A DNA stretch of 64,000 nucleotides from an uncultured Candidatus Saccharibacteria bacterium (GCA_964552045.1 CAZKFF010000001.1:64120-128119), one strand, 5' to 3'. Counted from the first letter of the stretch, positions 24,073-60,500 are shown. Notes: generated from the letters alone by a model not told the origin. Program-made: numbers and translations.

Positions 24073-24103
24073 AAAGCCGCAGGAGTGATCCGCGGCTTTT
24101 TTA
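24073..24103. terminator. bidirectional terminator hairpin
   Basis: aaaaagccgc-aggagtgatc-cgcggctttttt between convergent genes. Confidence 0.5.
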
Positions 24104-40524: not shown

Positions 40525-41514
40525 TTAGCGCTCTACGGCGGCCCTAACCGCTGCAATAATGGAATCTGTATCCATGCCGTAATGAGCAATGAGTTCTTCC
40601 GGATCGCCTGATTGCCCGAACTGATCCTCAACACCGACCCTGATGATCCGCTTGGGGGCATGCGCACTGTAGTACTCCGCAATAGCCCCGCCCAATCCTC
40701 CGGCAACCTGATGCTCTTCGACAGTCACAATAAGATCATGAGCTTCCCCGAATTGGTCGAGCGCCGCCGTATCGAGCGGTTTGACCGTCGGCATGTGGAG
40801 CAGAGAGGCGCCGATTCCCTCCTCATTGAGTCGCTGCGCGGCAGACAATGCATTGTGCGCCAAAATCCCTGTGCTGATTATCCCGACTGTTTTTTCGTGA
40901 GCAGGGTTCTTATGGAAAAAAGTGTATGCTTTGCCGATCTCAAAGGGCGAGGACTCAGTTGTCACCACAGGAGATTTATCCCGGGCGATGCGAATATACA
41001 CCGGCCCGTCGTACTCCGCAGCGGCAAGCACCGCCTTCTGTGCCTCATGCACATCGCACGGGGCTATGACCACCATGTTCGGCATTACACGCATGAGTGC
41101 GATGTCCTCTATCGCCTGATGTGTTGCTCCGTCCGGTCCCACAGAGACGCCGGCATGAGCGCCGATGATCTTCACATTGCGGTTGTTGTAAGCAATGGTC
41201 GTTCGCACCTGTTCCCAGCTTCGTCCGGGAGAGAACATCGCATATGAAGCGATAAACGGTATCTTCCCGCAGGCAGCCATGCCCGAAGCTACCGAAGCCA
41301 TGTTCTGCTCGGCGACACCCACCTGCACAAACCGCTCAGGGAACGCCTCTGCAAACAGATTGGTGCGCGTCGATTCTGTGAGATCAGCGCATAAGGCGAC
41401 AACGCGCGCATCCTTTTCTGCCGCCTCTTTCAGACCTGTGCCGTATCCGTCCCGGTTCGGTATTTTTTCTACCTGATCGGTGCATATTCTTTTGTCGAGA
41501 TGATCTGCAAACAT
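40525..41514 (-). CDS. transketolase, C-terminal subunit (split transketolase)
   Basis: Pyrimidine-binding and C-terminal domains. Directly follows the N-terminal subunit gene with a 2-nt gap. Confidence 0.85.
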   Translation of the reverse strand: MFADHLDKRICTDQVEKIPNRDGYGTGLKEAAEKDARVVALCADLTESTRTNLFAEAFPERFVQVGVAEQNMASVASGMAACGKIPFIASYAMFSPGRSWEQVRTTIAYNNRNVKIIGAHAGVSVGPDGATHQAIEDIALMRVMPNMVVIAPCDVHEAQKAVLAAAEYDGPVYIRIARDKSPVVTTESSPFEIGKAYTFFHKNPAHEKTVGIISTGILAHNALSAAQRLNEEGIGASLLHMPTVKPLDTAALDQFGEAHDLIVTVEEHQVAGGLGGAIAEYYSAHAPKRIIRVGVEDQFGQSGDPEELIAHYGMDTDSIIAAVRAAVER

Positions 41515-41516
41515 AC

Positions 41517-42410
41517 TTATGAGTCTGATGGGATTATGGTCCCTCCGAGCGTGCGCAGCCGCTGGAGCGCTATTTTCGCCTGCTCACTTCGCGGCACCCG
41601 GTCTTCCGGTCCCTTGCCCGGAGGATTACCGTGCCATTTGAAGTCGCGCTCGAACACATCCACGCCTTTTGAAGGGATGGTGTTGGCGATGATAACCGAT
41701 GGCTGGGAATAGATCGCCTGTGCTTTTCCGATGGCGTCATTGACCGCACGGATATTGTGTCCGTCCACTTCCTGCACATCGAAATTGAATGATTCAAATT
41801 TTTCCCGCAGCGGCTCGAGCGGCATTACGTCCTTGGTAAAACCGTCTATCTGAATGCCGTTGCGGTCGATGATGACCACGAGATTATGAAGCCCCTCCTT
41901 CCCCGCAAGCATAGCCGCTTCCCATATCTGCCCTTCGTTGAGTTCGCCGTCCCCGCAGATGCAATAGATGAACCGGGAGGTATACGGATTGTCCATGCGC
42001 TGCGCAATGGCCATGCCCACCGCCTGCGAGAGGCCCGAGCCTAAAGGTCCGGAACTCGTTTCGAGGCCCGGAAGCGACTCCCGATGCGGATGCCCCTGCA
42101 GACGCGAACCGAATTTGCGCAGTGTCAGCAGCTCCTCAATGGGAAAATAGCCCGCGTGCGCCATGGTCGCATACAGTACCGGACAGATGTGTCCTGCTGA
42201 AAGTACGAGACGGTCGCGGTCCTCCCAGTCCGGGTTCTTTGGGTCATGCTGCATGACGCTGAAATACAAAAGCGTGAAGATATCTGCCATATCAAGCGGA
42301 CCGGCAGTATGGCCGCTGCCGGCCGCAACCAGCATTTCTATTACGCTCTGACGTATCTCGTTCGCTTTCAATTCGAGCGCTTCTATCTCGGAAGTGGAAA
42401 GATAATGCAT
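41517..42410 (-). CDS. transketolase, N-terminal (TPP-binding) subunit
   Basis: GHTAGPLDMADIFTLLYF and GDGELNEGQIWEAAMLAG are the TPP-binding motifs of the transketolase N-terminal section. Confidence 0.85.
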   Translation of the reverse strand: MHYLSTSEIEALELKANEIRQSVIEMLVAAGSGHTAGPLDMADIFTLLYFSVMQHDPKNPDWEDRDRLVLSAGHICPVLYATMAHAGYFPIEELLTLRKFGSRLQGHPHRESLPGLETSSGPLGSGLSQAVGMAIAQRMDNPYTSRFIYCICGDGELNEGQIWEAAMLAGKEGLHNLVVIIDRNGIQIDGFTKDVMPLEPLREKFESFNFDVQEVDGHNIRAVNDAIGKAQAIYSQPSVIIANTIPSKGVDVFERDFKWHGNPPGKGPEDRVPRSEQAKIALQRLRTLGGTIIPSDS

Positions 42411-42430: not shown

Positions 42431-43576
42431 TTAGGAGAGACCAATGAGGCGTGCGAGCTGTTTATAGGCGGCGGCAGGATCCTTTGCGCGTGCGATCGCT
42501 GAACCGGGAGCAAAACGATTTACTCCCGCGTCGCGCAGACGCACGATAGTGTCCGCATTGACCGCGCCGTCGACTGCGATCTCCAGAGAAGGATGCGCTG
42601 TACGGAGCGCGGACACAGTCGCAATAGTCCGTTCGTCGAACGGCTCCCCTTGGACGCCGACATGCGCAATACCCATCACCTGCACAAAGTCTATCTCCGG
42701 GATATATGGCTCAAGCTCCGCATGCGGAATGTCATTGGTGACCGCAATACCGATTGAGTACCGATGCTCGCGCGCATGCGCGATGCATGCGGTGTATTCC
42801 TCTGTGCTGCCGAAGTGTATGACCACGCGCTTGACTCCCATGGATGCGCACAGGTCTAAAAAACGTTCGGGGTGCACGCACATACAGTCGATCTCAAGAT
42901 CAAATTGTTTTGTATAGCGCTGCAGCTTACCCAATTCTGCCTCGGCATTGGTCACCAGAAATGGCCACGAAGTGTGCGGCACGAATACTCCATCGACGAT
43001 ATCTATCTGGACCGCGTCTGCCGTTCCCGCAAGGGCATCAAGCAGTGTGGTAATTTCCTCAAAGGATGAGGCAGGAAGCGACGGCGCAAGAGCCAGGGAT
43101 GTATTCGGCGCGTGCACGCTGCTCAGCGTCTCGAGTTCCTCTATGCGGCGGTCATATTTCTCTTTTGGCTCATGCGCAGAAGCGAGCCAGAGCGCCACCG
43201 CCTTCTTGGCGGTCTGCTGGTCGAGGAATCGTGCGCCGAGCGACAGCACATTTGCGTCATTGTGCTGCCGTGAAAGCTTCACGATCTCATCACTTCCGCC
43301 GTAATAGACCGCAGCGCGGACGTCATGGAACCGGTTGGCCATCATGGCCTCCCCCTGCCCTGAGCCGCCGAGAATGATCGCCTTGGTCTGAAGCGGCCGC
43401 GCACTTACTTCCCTCGCAGCTTTCGCTATAAAGTCAGTGAAGTCATCCTCCGCATCGTACGCGTATGCGCCGCAGTCAACAACCTCATACCCGAGCTCAT
43501 CTCTGACATAGTCGATGAGCTTGTCTTTGAGTTCGAATCCGGCATGGTCAGAAGCAAAATAAATTGTATCCTCCAT
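42431..43576 (-). CDS. fusion protein: ribose-5-phosphate isomerase B (N-terminal) + ribulose-phosphate 3-epimerase (C-terminal)
   Basis: N-terminus IYFASDHAGFELKDKLIDYVRDELGYEVVDCG...ILGGSGQGEAMMANR is RpiB/LacAB-like. C-terminus IDIVDGVFVPHTSWP...VMGIAHVGVQGEPF is an Rpe TIM barrel. Confidence 0.75.
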   Translation of the reverse strand: MEDTIYFASDHAGFELKDKLIDYVRDELGYEVVDCGAYAYDAEDDFTDFIAKAAREVSARPLQTKAIILGGSGQGEAMMANRFHDVRAAVYYGGSDEIVKLSRQHNDANVLSLGARFLDQQTAKKAVALWLASAHEPKEKYDRRIEELETLSSVHAPNTSLALAPSLPASSFEEITTLLDALAGTADAVQIDIVDGVFVPHTSWPFLVTNAEAELGKLQRYTKQFDLEIDCMCVHPERFLDLCASMGVKRVVIHFGSTEEYTACIAHAREHRYSIGIAVTNDIPHAELEPYIPEIDFVQVMGIAHVGVQGEPFDERTIATVSALRTAHPSLEIAVDGAVNADTIVRLRDAGVNRFAPGSAIARAKDPAAAYKQLARLIGLS

Positions 43577-44706: not shown

Positions 44707-46407
44707 CTACTTCCGCTTTGCGAGCACTGCGAGGATGAAAACCACGCAACACAGCGCGATGCACGCCAGGAAGAACGGGTGCACGAAGAACAAGGGCAGG
44801 CCGGAGATGACCGCAGCCCCGGTAGTACTGCTCTCGATGAAGACAAAAGATGCACAGAGCAAACCGGTACAGAACAGCACGATACACAGTACTTTCAGGG
44901 CAGCAACGGCTGTGTGACGAGTCATCTTTTTACGCACGATCACATACACAAGCAATAACAGAAGCCCGAGGGCAATCGCCCAAAAGAAAGGCCCTGTAGT
45001 GTAGAAAATCCGCTCCGTACTTCCCGACAAGCCTGTGGGCGATAATGGTGCGCCTGCAAGGAAACGGTACGAGCCTTCAACCTGCTGCATCTTCTGAGTC
45101 TTGTGGTCAAACACGGTAACGACAACCGGATAGACTCCGGCTGTGCGAAGCGGTGCTATATGTGCTTCATAGTCTGTCTTGTCCTTGTTGATGCGCAGGA
45201 GGAACGAGAACGTGAGATTCTGATCCACCGGATGCGTGAACGTCACGCGGACGGTCTTCAGATGTTCCGGGAGCTTTTCATATGCTATGCGCAGAAGAAA
45301 CGGTGCATTCGCATCAAGCGTGCCGCCCTGAACCTGTGCGCCATTCTGTATGACTTCGATATCGCTAAACGACAGCGGGAATGCCGGATAATGCTCGGTG
45401 TCACCGCTGGTTGCAATGGCCTGTTGCGCTGCGGCAACCACCGCGCCTGAGGAAATGTTGCCCTGCGTGTCGTACGCAAATACCGTATAGTACTGCGCGT
45501 CATATTTTGAAAGTGCCCGGCTGTCTGAAAAGACTTCGGCATCTCCCTGATACGCGATGAACCCGTCATACGGATCATCCGGATAGAACAAGTGGCTCCG
45601 CACAATGCGCACAAAGGCGAAATCGGGATCGCTTGGGTTCTCCCATGAAAGCTCCACATCATTGCCAGACAGAGCCGCGCGCAAACCGGAGACATTCGAC
45701 GGCGGCGTTATGTCGGGTGCTTCAAGTGTTTTGAATTCTCCTGATGAAAGCGCGTGCCTGCGCCCGTCGCGGTCAAAGCCGAGCAGCTGATAAGAATAGG
45801 TCGTACCGGGCTCCAGATCGGTGATTACAGTCGAGTGGGTATGCTTGAAGAGCTCGTTTGAGACGAACCCGAGTTCATATGCTGCGGTCCTGCCCCAGCG
45901 CAGTTCAAACTGTGCATAGCCTCTTGTCTGCCATTCCACCTGTACGGTTCGGATATCCGGGATGACATCAAAATGGATCAGGTACAGATCGCTTCCACCG
46001 CCTCCATCGTCAGACACAGGCGCAGGTATGTCCAACGTAGTGGTGGAAACTGCCGCTGACGATGACGAGAAGTTTTCGGATGTATCGAAAGCGGTCACAA
46101 AATAGCTGTACAAGGTGTCCGCAGTCAGGCCGGTATCCGCATAGGTGGTCAAAGATGTGGTTGCAATCTGGATTGCATCACGGAAGACCTGGTATCCGCC
46201 AAGCACGGTATCGTCAGTTGCGGCATTCCATGAAAGGTCGATCTGCGAAGAAGCAACCGGCGTTGCGCTTAGTCCTGTCGGAGTCGTGGGCGGATTGGCG
46301 TCCCCCACTATACGCATGCGTACATTGAACTCGTCCGTCTGTGCCTGCGCTGCAAAAACGCAGACGAAGAGAAATACAGCCACATGTATGCAGAGTCTGG
46401 AGATCAT
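44707..46407 (-). CDS. surface protein with fibronectin-type-III-like domains and C-terminal membrane anchor(s)
   Basis: Signal peptide MISRLCIHVAVFLFVCVFAAQA. FN3-like PPTTPTGLSATPVASSQIDLSWNAATDD...YSYFVTAFD. C-terminal FYTTG, then TM, then RKK, then further TM segments. Start overlaps the upstream gene stop. Confidence 0.6.
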   Translation of the reverse strand: MISRLCIHVAVFLFVCVFAAQAQTDEFNVRMRIVGDANPPTTPTGLSATPVASSQIDLSWNAATDDTVLGGYQVFRDAIQIATTSLTTYADTGLTADTLYSYFVTAFDTSENFSSSSAAVSTTTLDIPAPVSDDGGGGSDLYLIHFDVIPDIRTVQVEWQTRGYAQFELRWGRTAAYELGFVSNELFKHTHSTVITDLEPGTTYSYQLLGFDRDGRRHALSSGEFKTLEAPDITPPSNVSGLRAALSGNDVELSWENPSDPDFAFVRIVRSHLFYPDDPYDGFIAYQGDAEVFSDSRALSKYDAQYYTVFAYDTQGNISSGAVVAAAQQAIATSGDTEHYPAFPLSFSDIEVIQNGAQVQGGTLDANAPFLLRIAYEKLPEHLKTVRVTFTHPVDQNLTFSFLLRINKDKTDYEAHIAPLRTAGVYPVVVTVFDHKTQKMQQVEGSYRFLAGAPLSPTGLSGSTERIFYTTGPFFWAIALGLLLLLVYVIVRKKMTRHTAVAALKVLCIVLFCTGLLCASFVFIESSTTGAAVISGLPLFFVHPFFLACIALCCVVFILAVLAKRK

Positions 46408-47165
46408 AAGGGCAGTGCGGTTACTGTTGTTGTGGCAACATACGAGCCGGGCGCCTGGATGACCGACCCCCCCACCCCAACACGGAAGCGGATCGATGTC
46501 GTCGCGCCTGTGGGATGATTGGCGCTTCCGTGAGACGCAATTATTTCAGGTGCGGTAGAAAGACCGTCCCAGCATGCAAATGGCGTTTCTCCGGAGCCGG
46601 TATTGCAGGACGACCCATTGTCCTTAAAGCGCTGCACAACGTCAGCGCCTTCGGGAGTGTAGCCCAAATGCGCGTCAGCTGCGCCAGTTTCGAACGAGAA
46701 GTCCGGATCGCCCTGCGGTGCATAATCTGCGATCGCATCGGGTCCTTTCTGCATAGCCGGACTGTCTGATGCGGCAATGGAAAGCGCATAGCCGGAAGGA
46801 CTGTCGGTGATGACCGTAACAGTGGTCGATCCGTTCGCTATGCCGCCTGACACACCCGGAATCGACGGAGAGAGCGCAATATCCGATGACGCGCTGAGCG
46901 CGATGTATACCTCCTGCATCTGCTGATATCCCGCCTTCAATGCGTAGTTCGTACTCGTGGACACACCGCTTGCAAGTTCTCCCGCAGTGGATTCCAAGAC
47001 ATAATTGGTTGAAGTGGAAAGCCCGCCACTGAAGTTGATGCTGTCGCTCTGGATCTGAAAGTTACTGCTCTCCATCACCTGCGCGCCGGCACAATGAAGG
47101 CTGGCTACGACCAAAAGTGTAGCGATACTTGCTTGAGATAATGGCGAGAATAATTCTCTCCACAT
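46404..47165 (-). CDS. secreted beta-rich protein, paralog A
   Basis: Signal peptide. Shares the blocks DNGSSCNTGSGETPFACW and ATTSIRFRV with the 48278..48964 gene. Confidence 0.55.
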   Translation of the reverse strand: MWRELFSPLSQASIATLLVVASLHCAGAQVMESSNFQIQSDSINFSGGLSTSTNYVLESTAGELASGVSTSTNYALKAGYQQMQEVYIALSASSDIALSPSIPGVSGGIANGSTTVTVITDSPSGYALSIAASDSPAMQKGPDAIADYAPQGDPDFSFETGAADAHLGYTPEGADVVQRFKDNGSSCNTGSGETPFACWDGLSTAPEIIASHGSANHPTGATTSIRFRVGVGGSVIQAPGSYVATTTVTALPL

Positions 47166-47173
47166 GGCACAGG

Positions 47174-48262
47174 TTACTTAGACTTTCGTTTAAACTCGAA
47201 ATTTCGTGCAAAGAAGCGAATTATGAAGAAGACGAGGAAGAGTCCGAGGAATACCGGCAATACGATCTTCCACGGAAGCACCCAGAAGGTTATGGTCTGC
47301 GTATCGATAATGTCATCATACCCGCGGTTGATGTGTGCAGTTGCTGTGTACTTGCCGATGAGCAGCTCACGGTTCCAGGAGATCTCCCGCGAACGCAGCG
47401 ATTTCGGCAATGCAAACCACGGATCAAGCTCAACGAAGCCGACCTCCTCATTGAAGAGGTTCGTAATCCTGATCTCTCCGTACGGATTCAGGTGGAGGTC
47501 TCCTTTGTTCTCGTACAGTATCTGAAAATTGATCGGGCCTTCAGTGAAGAACTGCTGATCGGGTACCGTAGCAAAACTGTGCAACTCTCCTGCTATCTCC
47601 GTTTCTCCAGGAATGGTCAAGAAAAAAAGCGTTCCTACACGGGAAATGATAGCTGAAGACGGTGAGGCACCATTCGTTTCAGCAATGTCGGCCTTCTTCG
47701 AAACGGTTGTAACAAGCACACTGCCGTAGCGTCCGCCCGGTTCAGCATTTGGAGGGACTGCAACAGTTACTGGAATACGAGCCCGTTGATTGTGTTTAAG
47801 CGTCAGCTTCTTGGTCGGAAGCTGTATATAGTCTTTGAGCGTATAGGGACCCCTGTCATCACCGAGAAGCACGACAGGTGTCCGAGGATCATCGGAGCCG
47901 GTTGCGTCTTCAACAAACAGTTCAAACTCGCGTTCCTCGCCTGTTCTGTTTGAGACGATGATCTCAACAGTCTTAGATGAGCCGGGAGCGACCGTGAGTT
48001 CAGTCTTGCCCGGTCCGACCACAAAGTCACCAGGAACCTCGTCCGACGCAGAGGTGAGCATTTCGGTTGAGTATCCGGCCTGGGCAGGAGTTTGAACGGT
48101 TCCGGCCTCCTGGGTAGGATCCCCTTCCATAGCGTCTGTGCCAGTTGCTGTTTCCTGTGCAGAAGCCGGAAGGCCGCCGAGCAGCATGGCTGCAAACAAA
48201 ACAACAACTACCGCACACACAGAGGCGGTAGTTGCTGTCTTAAAGGAGTGACCATTCATCAT
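47174..48262 (-). CDS. cell-surface protein with N-terminal signal peptide and C-terminal TM anchor + basic tail
   Basis: Signal ...VCAVVVVLFAAMLLGGLPASA. C-terminal LPVFLGLFLVFFIIRFFARNFEFKRKSK. Architecture resembles DUF916/DUF3324-type surface proteins (inference). Confidence 0.55.
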   Translation of the reverse strand: MMNGHSFKTATTASVCAVVVVLFAAMLLGGLPASAQETATGTDAMEGDPTQEAGTVQTPAQAGYSTEMLTSASDEVPGDFVVGPGKTELTVAPGSSKTVEIIVSNRTGEEREFELFVEDATGSDDPRTPVVLLGDDRGPYTLKDYIQLPTKKLTLKHNQRARIPVTVAVPPNAEPGGRYGSVLVTTVSKKADIAETNGASPSSAIISRVGTLFFLTIPGETEIAGELHSFATVPDQQFFTEGPINFQILYENKGDLHLNPYGEIRITNLFNEEVGFVELDPWFALPKSLRSREISWNRELLIGKYTATAHINRGYDDIIDTQTITFWVLPWKIVLPVFLGLFLVFFIIRFFARNFEFKRKSK

Positions 48263-48277
48263 TAGAATGATTTTATG

Positions 48278-48964
48278 CTAGTTAGTTGTGGCGGTCAACG
48301 TAGCAGTTGCTGTGTAAAATCCGGTTGAAACTGCAGGACTTGGATTGGAAGGCACCAGAACGCGGAAGCCGATTGTGGTTGTTGCTCCTGAAAGCGGTGT
48401 TGCGGTACTTCGACTAATGATCGTTTCTGCTGCGTCATCAGGATCGAGCCAACATGTGTTTGCCGTATCCCCGGAACCAGTATTACATGCAGAGCCATTG
48501 TCTGCGAACGAAGGATCAAGATCAGAAGATGATGAGGCTGCGACCGTATAACCAAACTGTGCATACGTCTCAGCGCCGAAACCATAATCCGGTACGCCGA
48601 CAGCTGTTGGATTGTAGTTTGAGATATATCCTCCGCCGCCATCCTTTGTCATGGCAGTCGTGCTTGAAAATGCGATGGTCATATTATAGCCGGCTGTATT
48701 GTTGGTATTCACGCGGACCGTATACGAACCGTCTGATTGACCTCCAGTGAGACCAGCAATGTTTGGAGACATAACCACATCAGTTGATGTTGCGATGAAG
48801 GCGATCTCAGCAGTGATCTCCTGGGTCACTTCAAATGTATCGGTTGCCTGAGCCAGTCCTACCTGCGGCTCAAGCATGAAGAATGAAGCAAGCGCCAACA
48901 GCGACGCGAGCGTTGCGGCAACCAGTGCGCCAAAGGTTGAATGCCTGATAAGTGTAAGGGTCAT
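48278..48964 (-). CDS. secreted beta-rich protein, paralog B
   Basis: Signal peptide. Conserved blocks DNGSACNTGSGDTANTCW and ATTTIGFRV are shared with paralog A. Confidence 0.55.
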   Translation of the reverse strand: MTLTLIRHSTFGALVAATLASLLALASFFMLEPQVGLAQATDTFEVTQEITAEIAFIATSTDVVMSPNIAGLTGGQSDGSYTVRVNTNNTAGYNMTIAFSSTTAMTKDGGGGYISNYNPTAVGVPDYGFGAETYAQFGYTVAASSSSDLDPSFADNGSACNTGSGDTANTCWLDPDDAAETIISRSTATPLSGATTTIGFRVLVPSNPSPAVSTGFYTATATLTATTN

Positions 48965-49065
48965 ACGTTGTTGTGTGTTTATGATTAACTTCCTTTAATT
49001 ATAGGGTGGATTTGCTCTCTCTTCCCTCTCTTTTTGGCTCTTCTGTGGATTACTTTGCAGGCAAT

Positions 49066-49099
49066 AAATAAGGACACTTTATAAAGTGTCCTTATTTTG
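49066..49099. terminator. palindromic terminator hairpin
   Basis: aataaggacacttTATAaagtgtccttatt is a perfect palindrome. T-runs on both sides. Lies downstream of the 49120..50355 gene. Confidence 0.55.
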
Positions 49100-49119: not shown

Positions 49120-50355
49120 TTATGTCTCCTGCGAGGTCGGCAAGACCTTGACCGTTGCCTCAGCCGATCGCGTTGTGGAGCCAAGTGTGCATTCGAGCGT
49201 GTACGTTGATTCCGAAGTGATGCCGACCACTGTTCCCTCTCCTTTAACCTCTGTTACAGACATGCCAGGGCCTTTCACGGTACAATTTTCCGCATTGCCT
49301 CCGTCCCAAGTGACCGTCACCTCACCTCCATAACGGATAAGTCCAGGCACAGCACTGATAGATATGTTGGACATCGTCAATGGATTATCTACCGCACAAG
49401 ACAAGTAGGTATATGCGCTGCTGCCGGAAAGTGTACCGTCGGTACAGGTACGGTTTATTGAGCTGCATGTTTCGCCGTCCGGAACCAGATTTTCATCGTA
49501 CAGTTTGCGGGTCGAACCATCGGCTATAGTGACGCCATTGACCGAACAATCTCTTTTGACCGTCGGGGTCGGCGACGAAGGCTGCGCTGGCGTCTGCGTT
49601 GCTGGTGTCGGGGTTGTCTTTGGAGTTGTTTTCGGCGTCGGTGCCGGGTCAATGGTACATGAGGAGTACTTGAACTTGTTCTTTCCGGAAAGATCGCCAT
49701 CGTCACATGTGCGTTTTATGAATTCGCATGTCTTTCCATAGTCAACATTCCGGTCCTTGTAGAATTTCCTCGATTTCCCGTCCTTTACCGTGACGCCATC
49801 AAGTTTGCAATCCTTCGGTTTTTCGCACACGAGCTCAGTGGTGCTCCAGGAGAAGAAGAATAATTGGTGCTTTACTGTCTTCTGTTCGCACCAGCTCTCC
49901 TTATAACAGGTTCCTTGGTAGAGGACGTATCCATTTTTACATTGCGGCGTCGGTGTGCGGGGTGTGGGATTATTCGGCGTCGGATCATCATTATTCAAAC
50001 CACAGGGGTCGTTTGGACCAGAACAGGCACTCGGTGTGCCACCATATGAGGCCTCTGAGGGACTCTGCGAGTATGAACCCTGACGGTAATATGAACTCTG
50101 CGAATACCCACTGGGAAGTGTCGCAGATATGGGCGAGGGAACGCCGAAACCTGTATCTGTTCCGGTTAAACCACCCGCATTGCATGACGGACAGCCCGAA
50201 TCAGAGAGTGCACCCGATGGATTGCCCGCCGTGCCACTATTGACCAGTGCCCGCTGATCCTCGTCGGTAAGCCGCGCGTTAGCAATTATGGGCATCGCGT
50301 ATAGCAATACGAGGGCGAAGCAAATGTAAACGTACGGACGTAAATATTTATTCAT
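49120..50355 (-). CDS. secreted Cys-rich protein with tandem Cys-bounded domains, Pro/Thr linkers and a short Tyr-rich S-Y-Y-x-Q segment
   Basis: Signal peptide MNKYLRPYVYICFALVLLYAMPIIANA. SGYSQSSYYRQGSYSQS. Two homologous modules C..DGVT..DG..RK.Y.....G.TC....RTC.DG.LSG. Linker TPKTTPKTTPTPATQTPAQP. C-terminal beta-domain ending C-T-L-G. Confidence 0.55.
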   Translation of the reverse strand: MNKYLRPYVYICFALVLLYAMPIIANARLTDEDQRALVNSGTAGNPSGALSDSGCPSCNAGGLTGTDTGFGVPSPISATLPSGYSQSSYYRQGSYSQSPSEASYGGTPSACSGPNDPCGLNNDDPTPNNPTPRTPTPQCKNGYVLYQGTCYKESWCEQKTVKHQLFFFSWSTTELVCEKPKDCKLDGVTVKDGKSRKFYKDRNVDYGKTCEFIKRTCDDGDLSGKNKFKYSSCTIDPAPTPKTTPKTTPTPATQTPAQPSSPTPTVKRDCSVNGVTIADGSTRKLYDENLVPDGETCSSINRTCTDGTLSGSSAYTYLSCAVDNPLTMSNISISAVPGLIRYGGEVTVTWDGGNAENCTVKGPGMSVTEVKGEGTVVGITSESTYTLECTLGSTTRSAEATVKVLPTSQET

Positions 50356-50366
50356 ATGATCAGGGG

Positions 50367-51440
50367 TTATTCGATCCAGTCACTTACAATGATACTCGAC
50401 TGCGGGAATGCATTGAGCGGTGTCACGGTAGTCACCACTCCGGAAAGCAAGTTCAAAAGTGTCAGTCTCCTATTTTCTGCTTCCGCTCCTGATGCTGGTG
50501 CCCAATCGACCTGTTCGAACGCAAGCCATTGGCTGTCCGGAGAAAAGACCGGCCAGAAAGCCTGTATATCATGAACCTCGCTTTCTCCCAGCGTGAACGG
50601 AGCCCATGAGGTGATGGCAGATACCGATACTGTCTGCACGAATGCATCGGTCATAGCCAGCATTTTCCCATCCGGAGATATATCGAACATGCGTTCAGTC
50701 GAAACCAGATTTTCATCCAAAACTACAGCGAGTCTGTCCTGTTTGTTTGTCACGGAGTACGCATGCACACCGTCATTCGCCAGATAAACAATCTGCGAAC
50801 CATCCGGAGAGAAGCGCGCATTATACCCGTGCGCTATAAATTGCGGTTCTTGTACATCCTGCACCAGATATATGCTCCAAGTGCTCGGCAAGTAGTACGC
50901 TTTTGTGTCTGTCGATTTCTCGGGCGGAACTTCGAAAGTGTATGACGCGCCTGTTGGTGCCTGCCGGACATTCCAGAAAGGTCTCTGTGCTGTTGTGGAC
51001 GCATACAAGACCTCATCACCGAGAGTGTCTTTAAGGGTACGGAACACAGCTACTTCGGGCGTGGCGCTCTTTACGAGAAAACCTGACCCAAGTGCGGTCT
51101 GTTTGTCGTTTGACACACTTGGCATGAAGTAATTGAAGAGTGAACGTTCGAGAGTTGACTTACCCAGGTCGAAGACAGCGAATATCGTTCCACTCGCATG
51201 TGGTTCCTGCAGGTTAAGCAGTATCTGACCCGACGGTGGCTCCATAGACTCTTCTGGAAGATCTGTATCCTCATCCATTTCAGAATACGTGTTCGTGAGT
51301 ACTGGCCCGGCAGGATTCCAGACGATCTTGATACCGATCACAATAGAAAGCAGGAGCAGAAACAACAAGAAGCATACGAGAACTATACCCAAGATGTTGC
51401 GTGTGGGCTCTTGCGGCTCTCGTGTATAGAGAAGGCTCAT
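50367..51440 (-). CDS. membrane-anchored PD40/TolB-like beta-propeller repeat protein
   Basis: TM ILGIVLVCFLLFLLLLSIVIGI. Repeated F/I-SPDG-x-x-L/I blades (FSPDGSQIVYL, ISPDGKMLAM, FSPDSQWLAF). Confidence 0.6.
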   Translation of the reverse strand: MSLLYTREPQEPTRNILGIVLVCFLLFLLLLSIVIGIKIVWNPAGPVLTNTYSEMDEDTDLPEESMEPPSGQILLNLQEPHASGTIFAVFDLGKSTLERSLFNYFMPSVSNDKQTALGSGFLVKSATPEVAVFRTLKDTLGDEVLYASTTAQRPFWNVRQAPTGASYTFEVPPEKSTDTKAYYLPSTWSIYLVQDVQEPQFIAHGYNARFSPDGSQIVYLANDGVHAYSVTNKQDRLAVVLDENLVSTERMFDISPDGKMLAMTDAFVQTVSVSAITSWAPFTLGESEVHDIQAFWPVFSPDSQWLAFEQVDWAPASGAEAENRRLTLLNLLSGVVTTVTPLNAFPQSSIIVSDWIE

Positions 51441-51599
51441 AAAGTATGTAGCGCACCTACAGACAGCACAATCAATGATAAGCATCGCTGTGGGTATTCT
51501 GCATCTGCGCTTAAACTCTCCCTATAGTATAAGCCACATCCCTAACTCATGCGCTGTAAAAGGAAGGGCGGATGTGGATTACTCCCAAAGTGAGTGGGG

Positions 51600-54500
51600 C
51601 TATATTTCGCCGCCGCCGCCGCCACCGCCGCCGCCTGCCTGGGTATACGGCTTTACCTGAATGGCATCGACCTTGACCGTATTCTGATCCGGCTGGTCAA
51701 TGACACGGACGAAGAAGTTGCCGCCTGAGAGGTCACTTGGACTCCAGCTGCGGCCCCAGGTATCGGACGCACCGCCGAGCGTATAGACTGCGTCGCTTCC
51801 CGTGAGCACGGATGTTGCCTTTGTCGCCGTCACACTTTCGTCGCCATTCCAGGAAAGTGCCACCTGAATCGTTCCCGCCCCGGTTGAACCGGACGCTTCA
51901 AGCTTCACTTCGATACCGGTCACCGTATTCCCTGCCGGCACATTGAAGCCGAAGACACTGTACGACTGACGAAGGTCCGCCGATGCAGCCGTTGCGTAGA
52001 CGTCGTCGGAGGTAAGCGCATTGCTGCCGTTTGTCCACTCATTGTAGAGTTCTCCGGTTGCGGTCGGCGCTTTGAAGCCGGGTTCGTTGCCAATCTGCTC
52101 TCCATTATCCTCTTCCCCTACTCCGCCGCCGCCGTTGTTGCCGCCGCCGCCGATGTCACCATCACCTTCTGGTGCATCGTCTCCCACTTCAGCGCTGAAG
52201 AGACTGCCGCCGCCCTTATTGCCGCCGCGGATATGCTGCACTGAGGTCACACCTCCGAGCGGGACAACAACTCCTTCAGTCGTCGCGCCCGTGCCGGTAA
52301 CACCGTTACGATTGAGGTCAATGGTCAGATACTCATTGGTATGTACGCCCGTGACATCTCCCGTAAGGACATAGTCTTTGGTCGTCGTTGCATCCCATGA
52401 TGTTGAGAATGTTATTGTCCCTGATTGTCCCGTGATGGCTAACACGCCAGTGCCGCCGATCTGGTTGTCAGAAGCGTCTGCCGTACCGTTGCTGTTATTG
52501 TCGCGGTAGAGCTTAAAGTCCCCAATATTACTGCTATCGATACGATGGATGCCGGAGAGTGTAAATACAGCTGACGTGATCGTTGCATTCTCTCCAACAG
52601 GTGCAAGATTAAAGGCAAACAATGGTTCGTCGCTCTTGTTCTGGTAGCTGAATGCATTGTCGATCTGACCAGCGGTGTGATCTGCAAGGTTTGCTGCACC
52701 ATAGATAGCCACAGTCTTATCATCATGAACGCCAGTAGCTGCCACAGGATCAAGTGTATAAGCGTTGATATCGTCACCCGTATAACCCATCACATAGAGC
52801 GTGGTACCGTCGTTGTTGAAGAGTGCCGCAGCAGGAGCAGATTCCTGTGCGGCGACCGAGAACGCGATCTCGTCGAAGGTCGCCGTTGAGATGTCGTACG
52901 GAGTGGAGAGCGTATAGGCATTGATGTCTTGTCCTGTTAAGCCCACAACATACAATACAGTACCGGTGTTGTTGAAGAATATATCAGAGGGGGCGTTTTC
53001 TTCTGAAAGGACCGAGAACGCGATCTCGTCGAAGGTCGCCGTTGAGATGTCGTACGGAGTGGAGAGCGTATAGGCATTGATCTCCCCACCAGATGCTTGC
53101 ACAACATACAGGACGGTACCGGTGTTGTTGAATTCCATATCATAGGGGAAGGATCCCTCTGCCGAAACCGAGAACGCGATCTCGTCGAAGGTCGCCGTTG
53201 AGATGTCATACGGAGTGGAGAGCGTATAGGTATTGATGTCGAGACCAGAAGTACCCATCACATAAAGAACGGTGCCGGTGTTATTGAAGAGCATTGAACG
53301 GGGGTTGATTTCCTGTGCGGCGACCGAGAGAGCGATCTCGTCGAAGGTGGCAGTTGAGATGTCATACGGAGTGGAGAGCGTATAGGCATTGATGTCATCA
53401 CCGGTAGAACCCATCACATAGAGCGTGGTACCGTTGTTGTTGAAGAGCATTGCACGAGGAGCGTCTTCTTGTGAAGAGACAGAAAGGGAGATTCCATTGA
53501 AGATGGCAGTTGAGACATCGTATGAACCTGACTCTTGATCAACAACAAACGACAGCGTCGATGTTGGCGCAGCAAGTGCGTTAAATTGTGTAAATGAAAG
53601 CCCCGAAATAGTGAGGGTATCCCCTCCTGAGAAGTCATTCGAGACGGGTACGACGAGTGTGGCACCGCTGTCCTCATACGAAACAGGATTAGAGACTTTG
53701 CCTGAGGCGGTTCCTCCAAAGACTGCAGTGGTATCGGTCGTATCCCACTTCATATTTGTCTTTGTAGTGTCAATGGTAATACGAAGGTCATTCGCTGCCG
53801 TAATCGTCGGGGTCTCGGCGTCGGTTATGGTAATGGCGGCAATAGACGTGGTCGCCTGGCCGTATCCAAAGATCTGGTTCGATGCTGAGGAAATCGTCCC
53901 CGCCCCGCCTCCACCTGCTGGCGCTGTGATGTCCCAGCAGTCGTTATTGCCGCTGTCGGTCGAGCTGGCTGCAGTGATGGTGCTTGCGCTGTCGCATGCG
54001 TTTGAGTCCATCACATCGACATACGTAACGGATATCTGGGTATCTGCATCGAGGCCCCACTGGGTTCCGTCCTGTGTTGAACGGAGTACGATCTCGTCAT
54101 TCTCTGCGCCGTCTATCTGTATAGAGGCGAAGGTTGAGGTCGCATCCGCAGGGAATTCCAGAGTAATACCGGGAGTGATCGCTACCAATTTTGCAGCCTC
54201 TACCGGATCAGTGAAGGTGGTGACCGGAACTCCGCCAGTATTGCCGGGCGAAGTCATCACGAGATCGGTACCAGATTGCGCTACCGCAACAAACGTACCG
54301 TTGCCGTAGGTCACTGACCGCCAAGAACTCGCTGCTCCTTCTTGTCGAGCAGTCCACGTGATTCCGTCAGGCGAGGTCATCACTTGATCAGTGCCACCGA
54401 GAGATACCGCAACAAACAGGCCGTTGCCGTAGGAAACGGAATGCCAGAAGGAAGCTTCTGTCGCCGAATGCGAGGTCCACGTGATGCCGTCCTCTGAGCT

Positions 54501-57500
54501 CATGACTCGGTTGGTGCCGGCTTGCGCGACGGCCACGAACGTGCCATTGCCATGCACCACGGAAATCCATGAACTTGCTTCAGCAGCACGTGCCGTCCAG
54601 GTGATGCCGTCAGGAGAGGTCATGACGCGGTTGGTGCCATCTTGAGAAACAGCGACAAATAAGCCATCGCCGTAGGTTACAGAAGTCCATGTGTTCGCCT
54701 CCGTTGCGGATCGTGCCGTCCACGTAATGCCGTCAGGAGAGGTCATGACGCGGTTGGTGCCGTCGGAAGAAACAGCGACAAACAGGTCGTCGCCGTAGGT
54801 GACTGATCGCCACTGGTTCGCTTCTGCGGCTGTGCGTACAGTCCAGGTAATGCCGTCGGGCGAGGTCATGACGCGGTTGGTGCCATCTTGAGAAACAGCA
54901 ACAAATAAGCCATCGCCGTAGGTGACTGATCGCCACTGGTTCGCTGCTGCGGCTGTGCGTGCAGTCCAGGTAATGCCGTCGGGCGAGGTCATGACGCGGT
55001 TGGTGCCCGTGAGTGCTACCGCGACGAACTGGCCGTTGCCGTAGGTGACTGAGTGCCACTGGTTCGCTTCTGCGGCTGTGCGTACTGTCCATGTTTGTCC
55101 GCCTTCGACCACTGGCGTATCCACTGAAGCGACCTCAAGCGTACCGAAGCTGGAGCTGCCGGTCAGGTTCCCACTGAAGGTTTGTGTGCCTCCATGTATG
55201 GTCGTCGTACCGTTCCCCCAGTCTATGGTCCCATTGTTCTCATAATCACCCGCAATCGAGAACTGCGACGGTGCTGTTACATACGTGTCCTCTGTAATGC
55301 TCAAGTCACTGGTCGAAGCATTGTTGGCAAACACCACTTCGCCGAGGAGCTCCCCGTCTGCAGAAGTCATGACGCAGTTTGTGGTACAGGTCGCTCCTGC
55401 GCTTGTCTGCTGTGCAATCGCGACAAATTTATTTTCTCCGTAAACAATATCCCACCATTTATTGACATTTATCGATGCGCGAGGTGTCCAATTTGCTCCA
55501 TTGTCACTAGAGGTCATGATCTGGTTTGTGCCGTCAGGTGAGACCGCAACAAAGAGGCCGCCGCCGTACGTGACTGACTGCCAGCTGTTCGCTTCATATC
55601 CGCTCGATACAATACTCCATGTGATGCCATCCTCTGAGGTCATGACATTATCATAGGCAACCGCGACAAACGTGCCACCGCCGTATCCCAAGCCGTACCA
55701 TGTACTACCCGGCACATTGCGCGATGTCCACGTGATGCCGTCGGGCGAGGTCATGACCAGATCGGTCCCCGTCGATGCGATCGCCACGTAGAGGCCTTCT
55801 CCGTAGACCACTCTCTCCCATTTGTTTGCCGCCGCAGCAGTACGTGCAGTCCACGTGATGCCGTCGGGCGAGGTCATGACGCAGCTGGTGCTGCAGGTGG
55901 CCGTACCATCGATATTGTTGTGGGCAATCGCAACAAACTGCCCTCCTCCATACGTTACCGAGTACCATTCGTTCTGCGCAGCTGCTGACCTGTTGGTCCA
56001 CGTGACTCCGTCAGGTGAGGTCATCACCTGATTGGTGCCGTTGCCAGCAACCGCAACAAACAGGCCTTCGCCATAGGTCAGGCTATTCCACGAGTTCGCC
56101 TGCGATGCTGAACGAGAGGTCCACGTGATGCCGTCAGGCGAGGTCATGACGCGGTTGGTGCCCGTGTATGCAAGCGCAACAAATGTGCCGTTGCCGTAGG
56201 TTATCGCAGACCAGGTACTGTTCTCCGATTGATTTTGTGCTGTCCAGTTCGCCCCGTCCGGTACGAACAGCTGCGGGGCATCAATGGTAATATCGTTGAA
56301 TGCCGAGCTTCCCGTCATGTTGCCCGAGAGAGTTGTCGTACCCGTGTAGGTTGTGGTTTCTGAGTAATCAAGACTGTACGGGAAAATATCCGAGGCAGAC
56401 TCTCCGTGGACATACATCTTCGAACCGTCGGGTTTGAACTCAAAACCATCAGGGAAGTCCTCCTGACTCGTAACCGAGATTGAAGTTCCGTCATATACTG
56501 CCGTGGTGACATCCCACGGGGTTGAAAGCGTGTATGGGGAGATATAGTCGTTGAGATAACCGCTGACGAACATCTTCGTTCCATCGTCGTTGAAGGCCAC
56601 ATCCTGGATATTCGTCTGCTGTGTATTGACCGAGAAGGACTTGCTGTCGTAGCTCGCACTTGAGATATCCCACGGGGTTGAAAGCGTATACGAATAGACC
56701 CGATTGTTTGCATCACCGCCGATGTACATGCGCGTGCCATCCTGCTTGAAGGTCATACCGAATGGTGTTGCATCCTGCGTCGTTACTGAAAAACTGACAC
56801 TGTCGTAGCTTGCTGTGGTGACATCCCATGCAGAAGACAGTGTGTACTGGAAGACGCGGTCATTGCCGGAACCGAGCGCAAACATCTTCGTACCGTCGCT
56901 TGAGAACGAGACTTTTTCGACAAAGCTATCCTGGGATGCAGTTGAGAATTCATTGACGTAACTCGCTGTGGTGACATCCCATGCAGAAGACAGCGAGTAT
57001 TCGGCAACGGCATCGCTGTTGTAGCCGTTGATGAAGAATTTCGTGCCGTCAGGCTTGAATGCGAGGCTTGTCACCTGCGACTCCTGCGAGGTCACCGAGT
57101 ACGCCACACCATCATAGGTTGCGGTGGTGATGTCCCAACTGGCAATCGCTGTTGTTGACGCTGTGGTGGTCCCGACAATATAGGTGAGGCCGCTTCCGCT
57201 GTCGAAGGTGCCGTTATTGGTGTAGTCGCCGGTTATGGTGAGCACCTCCGGCGCTTCCACAGTCGCGCCCGAAGCGATCGTAAAGTCGCTCGTCGAGGCA
57301 TTATCAGAGAACGTCTTAGTGCCATTTCCGGAGAAAGAGACTGCATTGAATGCGCTCGATCCGGTCATGCCGCCCGAAAACGCTTGTATGCCTGAACCGT
57401 CGAAATTGACGATACCGTTATGATGCGCGAAGACGCCGGTGTTCGCATAGTCGCCAGAGATCGTCAATTCAGCCGGAGCGATAAGCGTCGTCTGTCCGCC

Positions 57501-60500
57501 GATGGTGAGATCAGTTGTGGATGCTGTGGAACTAAGACTGATCGTATTGCCGTATGTACCGTCGCTGGAGTAGAGAACCTGATTGGTCCCATCCGTACTT
57601 GCCGACACAAACTTCCCCTCACCATAGGTCATCGAAATGAAGAAGTTCGTATTGGGAGTCGTGACCTCAGTCCACGTGATGCCGTCAGGCGAGATCATAA
57701 GGTATGTACTGCCCGTGAGCGGGTCTCCCAGTGCGGCAAAATATCCACCGCCGTACGCAAGTCCATACCAATCGGAATTGCCCGGAGTTATTCTCGTAGT
57801 CCACGTGATGCCGTCCTCTGAGGACATAGCGGTATCGGTCTCACTGACCGCAACGAATCTCCCTTCTCCATACACAACCCGCTGCCATCCGCTCGCGCTA
57901 GCCGCACTGCGGCTGGTCCAGGTAATGCCATCGGGTGAGGTCATCACGCGGTCAGAACCGGTACTCGCGACCGCCACGAAGAGGCCGTTGCCATAGGTCA
58001 CGTTTTTCCATTGATTTGCCTCAGGCGCGACCACCCCCGTCCAAATGATGCCATCTTCAGAGACCATCACGCGATATCCGCCGCCAGTAGTGTTACAGCT
58101 TGATGCATTCACGCCGCAGGCCACTGCTACGAAGAGGCCATTGCCGTAGGTGACGCTACTCCAGTTGTTCATCGCAGCTGCGGTACGGCTGGTCCAGGTA
58201 ATGCCGTCAGGCGAGGTCATGACGCGATTCGATCCAGTACTGGCGACTGCCACAAACAATCCGTCTCCATAGGTAACCCACTGCCATGAGTCTCCAACCG
58301 GCTGGGTTCGCGTAGTCCAGGTGACCCCGTCTGGAGATGACATGACATCTCCGTCCCATGAGACCGCTACGAAGGTTCCCCCACCGTACGTGATTGCGCT
58401 CCATTGTGATGATTTTGATGCGCTTCCCTCTTGCCATACGGCTGCACTATTAAAGAATTCACCCGATGAGGTGGCGGTCACATTGCCGAGTGTAGATGAG
58501 CCAGTGAGTGTTCCTGACACCGTACTGCTGCCCGTGATCACCAGTAGGCCATCATTTGAAAAGGTTCCGTTATTGATGAGGTTGCCGTTGACGGTGAGCG
58601 TTCCCGACGGGGCATTCAGTGCAGCCGTACCGCCGATGGTGAGATCGGAGGTCTCCGCGTCGTCCGCGAAGGTGATGTCGCTGTCCTCTGCACTGATTGT
58701 GAACACATTGAAGGCGTTCTCCCCCGTCATATTCCCTGCAAAGACCTTATCAGTGTCCGGCGTTCCGGTGCCTTCTGTTCCTGTCGTGTACTGGTACACC
58801 GCATCATCATCAATATCGAGTATGAACATCTTTACGCCGTCATCGCTGAACTTCACCTGCAATCCTCCACTGACCTGTGCTATTGGCGAGAAGCTGTTCG
58901 TGTAGCTTGCAGTACTGATATCAAAAGGCGTAGAAAGTGTATATCCGTACACATCCTGCCACCCGAAGAAAAAGAGTTTGGTTCCGTCAGTACTGAAATG
59001 TATACCTGAAACACTCGTATCCTGTGCCGAGAAAGAGAAACTCTCTTCATATACGGCAGTTGATACATCCCATGCCGGAGAAAGGGTGTATGCATGGATA
59101 CTGTCGCTGTTATCGCCAGCGATATACAAGCGTGTTCCGTCTGCGTTGAATGCAAGACCAAAAGGTTTTGTTTCTTCTGTGAAGAAGAACGCGTCTACAT
59201 AGGTTGCAGTAGTGATGTCGTACGGGGTGGAGAGCGACAGTTCTGCGACCGCATCACTTGAGTCCCCAGTGAAATACACTTTTGTACCGTCGTCCTTTAC
59301 GTATACCGCATTCGGAAAATCATCAAGTCCACCCACATTGAATGCGCCCTGGTATGAAGCGGTGCTGATATCCCACGGGGTACCCAGCGTGTACCAGCGG
59401 ATATTGTCAGCATCATAGCCAAGCACATAAAGATGTTCCCCATCACGGCTAAAATCCATTCCGTAGGCATTGGTTTCAGTAACGCCGAGCGAGACCGCGT
59501 CATACGAAGCGCTTGAGAGATCGTAGCCAACTGTATTGTTCTCCACCGCGACAGTCACTGTTCCATCGCCAGCGGTAAATACGCCGTCATTGGTGTAGTC
59601 TCCGTTGATCGTCAATACGGACGGAGCTACGACAGTCGAGGTTGCGGTGATAGAAAGATCGTTCACTTCCGCATCTGTTGAAAATGTCTGTGTCGTCAGG
59701 GCGTACGAACCGCTCTCTGAGGTCATGACTCGATCAGTACCATCAAGCGAGACCGCGACGAACTTCCCTTCCGCAAAGGTGACCGAACTCAGTGAATTTG
59801 CAACAGGCGTAGTTGCAAGCGACCACGTGATGCCGTCGGGTGAGGTCATGATACGGTCGTTTGTCGTATGGAAGCTTGAGACCGCTACATAGACCCCACC
59901 TCCGTATGCCACATCAACAACATTGCTGATGTCCGGCTTCGTGCGCGAGGTCCAGGTGGTGCCGTCTTGCGAGGTCATGATGTCTCCCCCCCATGAAGTG
60001 GCCACGAAGAGGCCGTTGCCGTAGCCGAGTCCGACCCATTGTTGGGCCGACGCAGCGGTGCGATTCGTCCAGGTGGTGCCGTCAGGTGAGGTCATAACGC
60101 GGTTCGTACCATCCTGAGCGACGGCGACGAAGATGTTGTTCCCATATGCCACACTATTCCATGTGTTCGCCTGGGAAGCGCTCTTCATGCTCCAGGTGAT
60201 GCCGTCGGGCGAGGTCATGACACGATCGGTCCCCGAGCCCGCGACTGCGACGAAGGTGCCGTTGCCATAGGCGACGGATTTCCACGCGCTCAGGCTGACG
60301 CTCGTCGTATCCCATGTAATGCCGTCGCTCGAATATGCCGCCCGATCGGTTCCGTCGCTCGAGACGGCGACAAACGTATCATTTCCGAATGTGACGGATT
60401 CCCACGTGTTGTCAGGGAGTGAATCGTCGTGCTCTACCCAATTCTCGCCATCAGTTGAAGTCATAACGCCCGTGCCGCTTCCGACTGTCACAAACAGTCC

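Follow-up and report, generated by a model that had tools for sequence, protein, structure and literature searches.

A compact four-gene surface cassette of Paceibacteria, related to WxLIP clusters and to the Pam pilus loci

We describe a cassette of four genes, A-M-B-F, found at positions 44707-48964 of a 64,000 nt stretch of DNA (the window) from a contig labelled uncultured Candidatus Saccharibacteria bacterium (GCA_964552045.1 CAZKFF010000001.1:64120-128119). We conclude with high confidence that the four genes code for a coherent cell-surface complex, related both to the clusters which contain WxLIP proteins and to the Pam loci of the Candidate Phyla Radiation (CPR). It also appears probable, although with less confidence, that the complex is a surface fibre which assembles by donor-strand exchange with the help of a chaperone and without an usher. 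It would be a variant of the Pam pilus, compact and provided with a chaperone of the WxLIP type. Several features lead us to the fibre. The protein M belongs to the WxLIP family, has a fold like that of the chaperones of chaperone-usher systems and is tethered to the membrane. The protein B has an extension which is unstructured yet is its most conserved part, like the donated linker of Pam; its family matches the PamT model, has an invariant cysteine pair and is found elsewhere in fusions of an N-terminal domain, a linker and a C-terminal domain. The protein F joins an N-terminal strand with fibronectin type III (FN3) domains and a transmembrane segment, and the order A-M-B-F is kept in 71 of 80 genomes.

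Gene A (48278-48964, 228 aa) is followed by gene M (47174-48262, 362 aa, or 361 aa in the public databases, which place its start one methionine later), gene B (46404-47165, 253 aa) and gene F (44707-46407, 566 aa). All four are open reading frames on the minus strand, as are the features located within them. There are 15 nt between A and M and 8 nt between M and B, while B and F overlap by 4 nt (ATGA): the tight packing and common orientation given in a first-pass annotation of the window are found exactly in the list of open reading frames and in the sequence.

The protein M consists of a signal peptide, a disordered linker, a first domain (residues 65-188, approximately), a second domain (approximately 205-328), a transmembrane helix (331-360) and a KRKSK tail; the motif FEFKRK is nearly invariant in its family. 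The AlphaFold2 model, with a predicted local distance difference test score (pLDDT) of 82, presents a signal helix, the disordered linker, two beta-sandwich domains and a transmembrane helix of 30 residues. This helix and the basic tail are coded at 47183-47272, with a hydropathy peak at residues 333-351. The first-pass annotation had assigned to M a signal peptide, a C-terminal transmembrane segment and a basic tail; the N-terminal hydrophobic segment, the helix 331-360 and the KRKSK end agree with it.

Different searches place M in the same family. It scores 31.2 bits with PF06030 (DUF916, also WxLIP_PGBD), above the gathering score of 27.3 bits. In the PDB both phmmer and a profile search detect EfmWxLIP1 only (9i25_C and 9i1y_A, E 1e-7), and hhalign aligns 73 M orthologues with four Enterococcus WxLIPs at a probability of 94.4% over 141 columns. 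When the model is compared with known structures by Foldseek, WxLIP (9i1y/9i25) comes first with E 1e-13; about 270 columns are aligned, so that the match takes in both domains of M. Next come the periplasmic chaperones CfaA, CsuC, FimC, Caf1M, YadV, CupB2, EcpB and DraB of chaperone-usher systems, with E values from 1e-6 to 1e-10 for CfaA, CsuC, FimC, Caf1M and EcpB; RbmA is also found. By these Pfam, PDB, hhalign and Foldseek results M is established as a member of the WxLIP/DUF916 family, which folds in two domains like PapD and is tethered to the membrane. PF11797 (DUF3324, WxLIP_HBD), with which Enterococcus WxLIPs score 110-130 bits, has no match in M, and the NCBIfam models of Pam components match neither M nor 39 of its relatives. 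Residues 78-86 of M (G-D-F-V-V-G-P-G-K) are invariant. They occupy the same position as the WxLIP motif NQIDKxxxYFDLK and are loosely similar to the way in which A and F begin (D-x-F-x-[IV]). This segment might be the complementing strand of the chaperone.

The AlphaFold2 model of B is a confident beta-sandwich in residues 85-253 (pLDDT about 90). Its best structural matches are CsuA/B, CupE and CfaB, accompanied by CS20, CfaE/CfaB, the pilin domain of FimH, FimI/A/F/G, PapG/K/F/H/E/A, AggA and Caf1; TLP, the cannula proteins CanA/CanX and TasA are also present. Foldseek agrees on pilin-like matches, with weak E values and modest scores. As modelled, the fold of B is pilin-like. The assignment is specific, since ordinary immunoglobulin (Ig) and FN3 domains are nearly absent from the top matches, and it is coherent with the presence of the chaperone-like gene M between the paralogues A and B. 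Before the folded domain, mature B has an N-terminal extension of 58 residues (27-84, coded at 46914-47087), with three S-x-N-[YF]-x-[LI] repeats and Gly-rich turns between them. In the monomer model it is unstructured, with pLDDT below 50, yet it is the most conserved segment of the protein: the mean pairwise column identity is 0.69 in the extension, 0.55 in the folded domain and 0.23 in the signal peptide. We propose that residues 27-84 are the donor-strand or linker region of B.

A and B are 41% identical over 180 aa in BLASTP (E 2e-30), including the block DNGS.CNTGSG.T...CW: the paralogy and the shared Cys block pointed out in the first-pass annotation are both real. C187, C198 and W199 of B are invariant columns, and the two cysteines are invariant across the A/B family. 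The loop of B (C-N-T-G-S-G-x-T-x-x-x-C-W) is coded at 46572-46607 and its equivalent in A, with Cys160 and Cys171, at 48452-48487. In both proteins the pair presumably forms a disulfide. A has a signal-type hydrophobic segment at residues 13-31 and is the first gene in the 71 loci mentioned above. It lacks the long extension of B: mature A opens with a single strand, residues 39-56 (48797-48850), with the motif [ST]-D-x-F-T-[IV]-[TR]-Q-x-I-x-x-E-x-S-F. Among 69 A orthologues F44 is kept in 68, I/V46 in all 69 and Q48 in 65.

No Pfam family was found for A, B or their relatives in a scan of 40 members of the A/B family at E<=10, and when B was compared by sequence with the PDB nothing rose above noise. 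The NCBIfam model NF058579, "CPR-type pilus protein PamT", does detect B: 40.5 bits with E 2e-10 over profile positions 10-131, the equivalog cut-off being 240 bits. It is matched by 39 of the 40 family members (best E 1.8e-14), all of them far under the cut-off, and one relative aligns with positions 7-235 of its 241; A has no match. As judged from these profile scores, B is a distant homologue of PamT and not its equivalog.

The last gene of the cassette in the loci of our genome scan is always F. In its product a signal peptide and a short, pilin-like strand at the N-terminus precede three to four FN3/Ig-like domains, after which come three transmembrane segments (473-491, 506-524 and 545-563). 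The domains are recognized by Pfam fn3 (41 bits), by partial Fn3-like matches (150-215) and by FN3 matches in the PDB (35-124). The mature N-terminal strand, residues 23-36 (46300-46341), has the motif [TS]-[DS]-[DE]-F-[TN]-[IV]-R-x-x-[VI]-G-x-D, of the same type as the N-terminus of A; F27 is found in 68, I/V29 in 74 and D36 in all of 75 F orthologues. F had been presented in the first-pass annotation as an FN3 protein which ends in a transmembrane segment and RKK. The FN3 domains stand, but the end does not: the protein continues for about 70 residues beyond that point, with two more hydrophobic segments and a KRK end. The three segments are found in the clade of the window and in the related locus L004, while the distant orthologues in L006 and L007 have one. 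The extra pair (44719-44991) is Cys-rich and contains six of the eight cysteines of F. By analogy with PamR we propose that F is the stalk and membrane anchor of the fibre; no NCBIfam model of a Pam component matches it.

B modules are also found in larger proteins. Among the 150 best representatives of the A/B profile many, of 365-2187 aa, carry the B module at their C-terminal end. Those inspected include five genuine fusions (P0255, P0269, P0280, P0310 and P0341), in which a LamG/ConA-like lectin, DUF2341, toxin-receptor-binding-like or FN3 domain is directly followed by an S-x-N-Y-x-L region and then by the Ig domain. This is an adhesin-linker-pilin layout, comparable with that of FimH and PapG in chaperone-usher pili and with the sequence of N-terminal domain, linker and C-terminal domain in PamA/B. 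The lectin-like N-terminal domain of P0280 matches NCBIfam NF052521, "TafC family fimbrial protein", with E 1.6e-8, far under its cut-off. Another three proteins, P0245, P0249 and P0257, might have been taken for PamA-like pilins (430-670 aa), but they keep both the transmembrane helix of M and the signal peptide of B: they are M-B read-through fusions, in which the helix is directly followed by the signal peptide. Natural read-through or a polyprotein could account for them, but so could a frameshift error or an artefact of gene calling, such as an alternative code would produce. Should one of these fusions be real, it is a Rosetta-stone link of the chaperone with the subunit.

The cassette is widespread. 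Gene order was counted by a pattern scan in the best 80 of 181 confirmed relatives, with one genome per species of GTDB; the 80 loci kept are the closest ones and all of them are of Paceibacteria type. The order A-M-B-F, which 71 of them show, is also present on other metagenome contigs. The remaining loci are mostly cut by a contig end, or A is undetected in them (L052, L061, L079 and L087). This conserved order indicates a co-occurrence far beyond chance, and the four genes are clearly kept as a unit in relatives. Glyceraldehyde-3-phosphate dehydrogenase (GAPDH) follows the cassette in 63 of the 80 loci; in most genomes of the scan it adjoins the cassette together with pentose-phosphate genes. 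Identity with the proteins of the window across loci is highest for B (48-77%), followed by M, A and F. At 90% clustering we have found 1331 homologues of B and 1582 of M, while at 50% identity the A/B profile detects 1388 clusters, of which 253 have E<=1e-30. Proteins identical to those of the window are present only on NCBI/Logan contigs. The closest named relatives are metagenome-assembled genomes (MAGs) of Candidatus Kaiserbacteria, Paceibacterota and Parcubacteria, and we propose that the host is an ultrasmall, monoderm CPR bacterium of the Paceibacteria, similar to Kaiserbacteria. Some contigs with a cassette of Paceibacteria type bear other labels: Acidimicrobiales, Nanoarchaeia archaeon and Azotimanducaceae (L041, L062 and L078), and in many cases "uncultured Candidatus Saccharibacteria". 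The GAPDH of L041 and L078 is 75-77% identical to that of the window; the contig of L062 ends before this gene. Mis-binning, or a generic label on the MAG contig, is the probable explanation.

A fibre could be assembled from these four proteins as follows. All four have signal-type N-termini and would be exported by Sec. M would be held in the membrane by its C-terminal helix, with its Ig-like domains capping fresh A and B by strand complementation, on the model of PapD/FimC and of the predicted action of WxLIP on WxL proteins. B would polymerise when its N-terminal extension enters the Ig-like domain, presumably incomplete, of the subunit before it and ousts the chaperone. A, without a long extension, may be a minor subunit, at the tip or as an adaptor; its role is the least certain point of the scheme, since A also has a potential donor strand. 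The N-terminal strand of F would mimic that of a subunit and plug the last one, as is suggested for PamR. By the same analogy its FN3/Ig stalk would span the envelope and its transmembrane segment or segments would fix the fibre in the membrane. A likely role is adhesion to host cells or surfaces, or contact with them; paralogues elsewhere carry lectin-like domains ahead of the B module.

The closest parallel is the Pam pilus, whose filaments have been solved in Ca. Mycosynbacter amalyticus, one of the Saccharimonadia (bioRxiv 10.64898/2026.03.03.709456). PamA and PamB have an N-terminal domain, a linker which acts as donor strand and a truncated Ig C-terminal domain; they contain paired cysteines and the linker is their most conserved part. 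The accessory proteins are predicted: PamC/D are PapD/FimC-like and membrane-anchored, PamT has a single domain, and PamR has FN3 domains (RbmA-like), an extra N-terminal strand and a transmembrane helix which anchors the filament. According to the same paper a "tail fibre-like protein" is linked to pam operons and the homologues occur mainly in Saccharimonadia and Microgenomatia; neither DUF916/WxL nor Paceibacteria/Parcubacteria are mentioned in it (10.64898/2026.03.03.709456).

Our cassette shares with Pam its restriction to CPR, the export by Sec, which is presumed for the cassette, and the lack of an usher or trans-envelope machine. Both have Ig-like pilins, or pilin-like proteins, with paired cysteines and a conserved segment N-terminal of the Ig domain, the donated one in Pam and the proposed donor in B, and in both a giant or "tail-fibre-like" protein is common nearby. 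Compared by their descriptions, PamC/D resemble M as PapD/FimC-like chaperones whose C-terminus bears a transmembrane helix, and PamR resembles F in its architecture of FN3 domains, N-terminal strand and C-terminal transmembrane segment. B corresponds to the linker and C-terminal domain alone of PamA/B; two-domain relatives are present in other genomes and none in the window. The differences are also clear. The cassette has four genes, Pam seven named pam genes; A and B are single-domain proteins, whereas PamA (55 kDa) and PamB (39 kDa) have two domains; F counts three to four Ig/FN3 domains, with three transmembrane segments in the clade of the window. Instead of ATP synthase the cassette has GAPDH and pentose-phosphate genes beside it, and the hosts are Paceibacteria instead of the Saccharimonadia and Microgenomatia of the paper. 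The first-pass annotation had suggested a possibly new complex. That has to be qualified, as a related CPR pilus is described in a preprint of 2026 and a PamT model exists; what stands is a compact variant. As a variant of Pam it is best called new: it fails the PamT equivalog, has no pilins of PamA/B type, belongs to another class, has only four genes and has a chaperone-like protein which is demonstrably of the DUF916/WxLIP family.

The second parallel is found in Firmicutes, where WxL clusters contain one WxLIP (DUF916, DUF3324 and a transmembrane segment) and at least two WxL proteins; in AlphaFold models a strand of DUF916 inserts into WxL (PMC10599100; see also PMC1534035 and the structures 9i1y and 9i25). 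M is homologous to WxLIP, with the same length, domain order, transmembrane segment and basic tail, and in both cases a single gene of WxLIP type is accompanied by two small secreted paralogues. On the other hand A and B are not WxL domains by any test that we applied and have no Trp-x-Leu, there is neither an LPXTG protein (CscD) nor a sortase, the second domain of M escapes the DUF3324/WxLIP_HBD model and the cassette belongs to CPR bacteria instead of Firmicutes. The chaperone-usher pili, above all the archaic and alternate ones (Csu and CupE, with SCPU-domain pilins, and CFA/I), resemble B and M in fold and share the pairing of subunit and chaperone and the N-terminal donor strands. In them there is an outer membrane with its usher and the chaperone is soluble; the cassette has neither outer membrane nor usher and its chaperone is membrane-anchored. 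Their donor is one extension of 10-20 residues, while the donor region of B has 58 residues and three repeats. TasA of Bacillus, the archaeal TasA-like fibres, bundling pili and cannulae are also monoderm or archaeal systems with beta-sandwich subunits and donor-strand polymerisation, but their fibres are chaperone-free.

The first-pass annotation had compared the layout either with WxL/DUF916/DUF3324/LPXTG loci or with operons of a pilus or fibre subunit and its anchor. From the first comparison the DUF916 component stands, by the Pfam and Foldseek results for M, whereas the WxL domains in A and B and the LPXTG motif do not. The second one holds too, and the two prove to be aspects of a single thing. 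M has a chaperone-like fold and the gene set is conserved; the comparison of the M model with WxLIP also indicates that the folds are not unrelated. As that annotation had stated, there is no WxL motif: W-x-L is absent from A, B and F. We looked for a relationship of A/B with WxL domains, using as a test set Enterococcus WxL clusters from plasmids and 120 WxL proteins. PF13731 has no match at E<=10 in A, B and 38 relatives. With 92 sequences of B type, 69 of A type or all 161 taken together, the hhalign probability against the 120 WxL proteins is 1-3%, with a local match of 14 columns (E 0.015); with shallow alignments only the last strand is matched. The A/B profile detects nothing in the PDB, the partner chain of 9i25 included. 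No relationship can be demonstrated beyond a short motif resemblance, although a very remote one may still exist.

Other fibre types were rejected. TasA/camelysin (with SipW), sortase pili and type IV pili left no motifs or Pfam matches: there is no LPXTG-type motif near the C-termini of the cassette proteins, no sortase among the neighbouring genes and no class III prepilin signal peptide, the N-termini being ordinary signal peptides of the Sec type. PapD_N, PapD_C and Usher of Pfam were absent from the cassette and from 18 neighbouring or large proteins of the window, and fimbrial or SCPU matches were absent from the cassette. A polysaccharide-binding complex, the other possibility raised in the first-pass annotation, finds no support, as none of the four proteins has a carbohydrate-binding module or lectin domain; where F matches exoglucanase CbhB and chitinase A1, it is only the FN3 linker domains of these enzymes that are aligned.

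The same four proteins could form a static complex similar to those of WxL (Csc) clusters, in which M permanently holds A and B at the surface by strand complementation and F is a further surface protein, with no fibre at all; a similar arrangement has been proposed for pairs of WxLIP and WxL in Enterococcus and Lactobacillus. The nearest relatives of M by sequence and by structure are indeed WxLIPs, and one WxLIP with two small secreted proteins (here 228-253 aa) is the commonest composition of WxL clusters (PMC10599100); A and B also fit WxL proteins of 228-266 aa in size, and they have a local motif, TD..GY.L.I, similar to VTDxRG..GW.L.V, which is the first motif of WxL. We still consider such a complex rather unlikely: A and B are not detectable as WxL domains by any of the tests described, the WxL chain of 9i25 does not appear among the top 50-60 structural matches of B, and it leaves unexplained the conserved unfolded extension of B, the relationship with PamT and the subunit-like N-terminal strand of F.

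A housekeeping role in the envelope is less probable still. Here the Ig proteins would be associated with the envelope or an S-layer, for example tethering an outer layer or a giant protein to the membrane, and there would be no adhesive pilus. The very high conservation, the fixed position by GAPDH and pentose-phosphate genes in most genomes, the single copy in the window with housekeeping genes around it and, in 30 of the 80 loci, the conserved gene upstream for a giant secreted protein would all suit this role. But none of the four proteins shows an S-layer or cell-wall-binding domain, more than half of the loci lack the giant gene, and the folds point specifically to pairs of pilin and chaperone. 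That the four open reading frames are unrelated or spurious and merely lie close together can hardly be maintained, with over 1000 homologues of each, their order kept in 71 of 80 loci and assignments of fold and family which are mutually coherent.

Several points weigh against a donor-strand fibre of Pam type. Donor-strand exchange is deduced from folds, conservation and analogy, and the fibre itself is a prediction. The closest characterised relatives of M, the WxLIPs, are known from non-filamentous surface complexes. The PamT score of B is far under the cut-off (40.5 against 240 bits), A has no match, and two-domain major pilins like PamA and PamB are absent from the cassette. B is more conserved than is usual among surface proteins, which might indicate a housekeeping role in the envelope instead of an adhesive pilus. 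Finally, the likeness to the Pam proteins of M. amalyticus rests on their descriptions and on the PamT model, and the assembly model of Pam is itself largely based on AlphaFold and comes from a preprint (10.64898/2026.03.03.709456).

A broader hypothesis is possible, which we put forward tentatively. The cassette would be the minimal, near-core form in Paceibacteria of an ancient usher-free system, made of a membrane-tethered chaperone, donor-strand subunits and an FN3 anchor. It would unite WxL/Csc clusters, Pam pili and, at the level of folds, chaperone-usher pili, with WxLIP/DUF916 proteins as the monoderm counterparts of PapD-type chaperones; WxL clusters themselves may then assemble by strand exchange. 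We know of no WxL cluster that forms fibres, and in the literature searched we found no link of WxL/DUF916 with chaperone-usher systems or pili.

The four genes look like a single transcription unit. Upstream of A there is a 14-bp stem-loop with a T-rich tail (49067-49096, minus strand; -20.3 kcal/mol in RNAfold), which likely serves the gene 49120-50355 upstream as intrinsic terminator and marks the 5' boundary of the cassette. It is followed by a TATAAT hexamer (48998-49003, minus strand), 35 nt 5' of the start codon of A, which is a tentative candidate for the -10 box of the operon promoter. No hairpin is apparent within the cassette, and a second TATAAT is found 5' of the next gene, GAPDH; it is on these features, read from the sequence, that the single unit is based. 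A consensus scan for promoters and terminators gave fewer sites than in shuffled controls; it found no full sigma-70 promoter at the TATAAT of 48998-49003 and overlooked the stem-loop, which is visible by eye.

Three genes upstream of A, also on the minus strand, code for a Cys-rich secreted protein of 411 aa with Pro/Thr linkers and no family (49120-50355), a protein of 372 aa with a transmembrane segment and a PD40/TolB-like beta-propeller (50367-51485) and a giant secreted repeat protein of 3696 aa (51600-62690), with Pfam matches to EPTP, DUF6242 and a 7-bladed beta-propeller. The repeats of the latter include S-P-D-G-I-T-W-T, similar to an Asp-box, and Y-T-L-S-T-P-W-D-I-S-T-A. Its homologue is directly upstream of A in the 30 loci already mentioned and in L004. 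In L006 a giant gene in this position has no homologue match with that of the window and a weak match with Peptidase_S74, a tail-spike chaperone. This calls to mind the "tail fibre-like protein" linked to pam operons, and the fibre may have the giant protein as its partner or cargo. We have found no homologues of the two other genes in 87 related loci; the giant gene abuts A directly in related loci, without them, and together they look like a lineage-specific insertion.

Elsewhere in the window the genes are those of an ordinary chromosome (RNase R, SMC, DnaE, GyrB and PheT), and the cassette is present in a single copy. Ribose-5-phosphate isomerase B and ribulose-phosphate 3-epimerase are fused in a protein of 381 aa (42431-43576, minus strand), as they are in L001, L004 and L005, while they are separate genes in L006 (14549-15718) and L007 (14472-16214). 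Transketolase is split into genes for its N-terminal (41517-42410) and C-terminal (40525-41514) parts. A protein of 463 aa (24101-25492, minus strand) combines a PG_binding_1 domain with a twin-arginine (TAT) signal, and may be of interest as a TAT substrate of a CPR bacterium with its reduced genome.

CPR bacteria, or Patescibacteria, represent a large share of bacterial diversity. They live attached to other cells, and their attachment organelles are barely known. To our knowledge Pam, from one species of Saccharimonadia, is the only pilus other than type IV that has been described in them. The cassette would be a far more compact relative of it, in another class of CPR and very widespread. 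DUF916/WxLIP proteins of enterococci, listeriae and lactobacilli have been linked to virulence and adhesion: if our interpretation is true, these proteins would be membrane-tethered chaperones of the chaperone-usher type. With only four small genes, the cassette would be an attractive minimal system for the reconstitution of donor-strand assembly without an usher.

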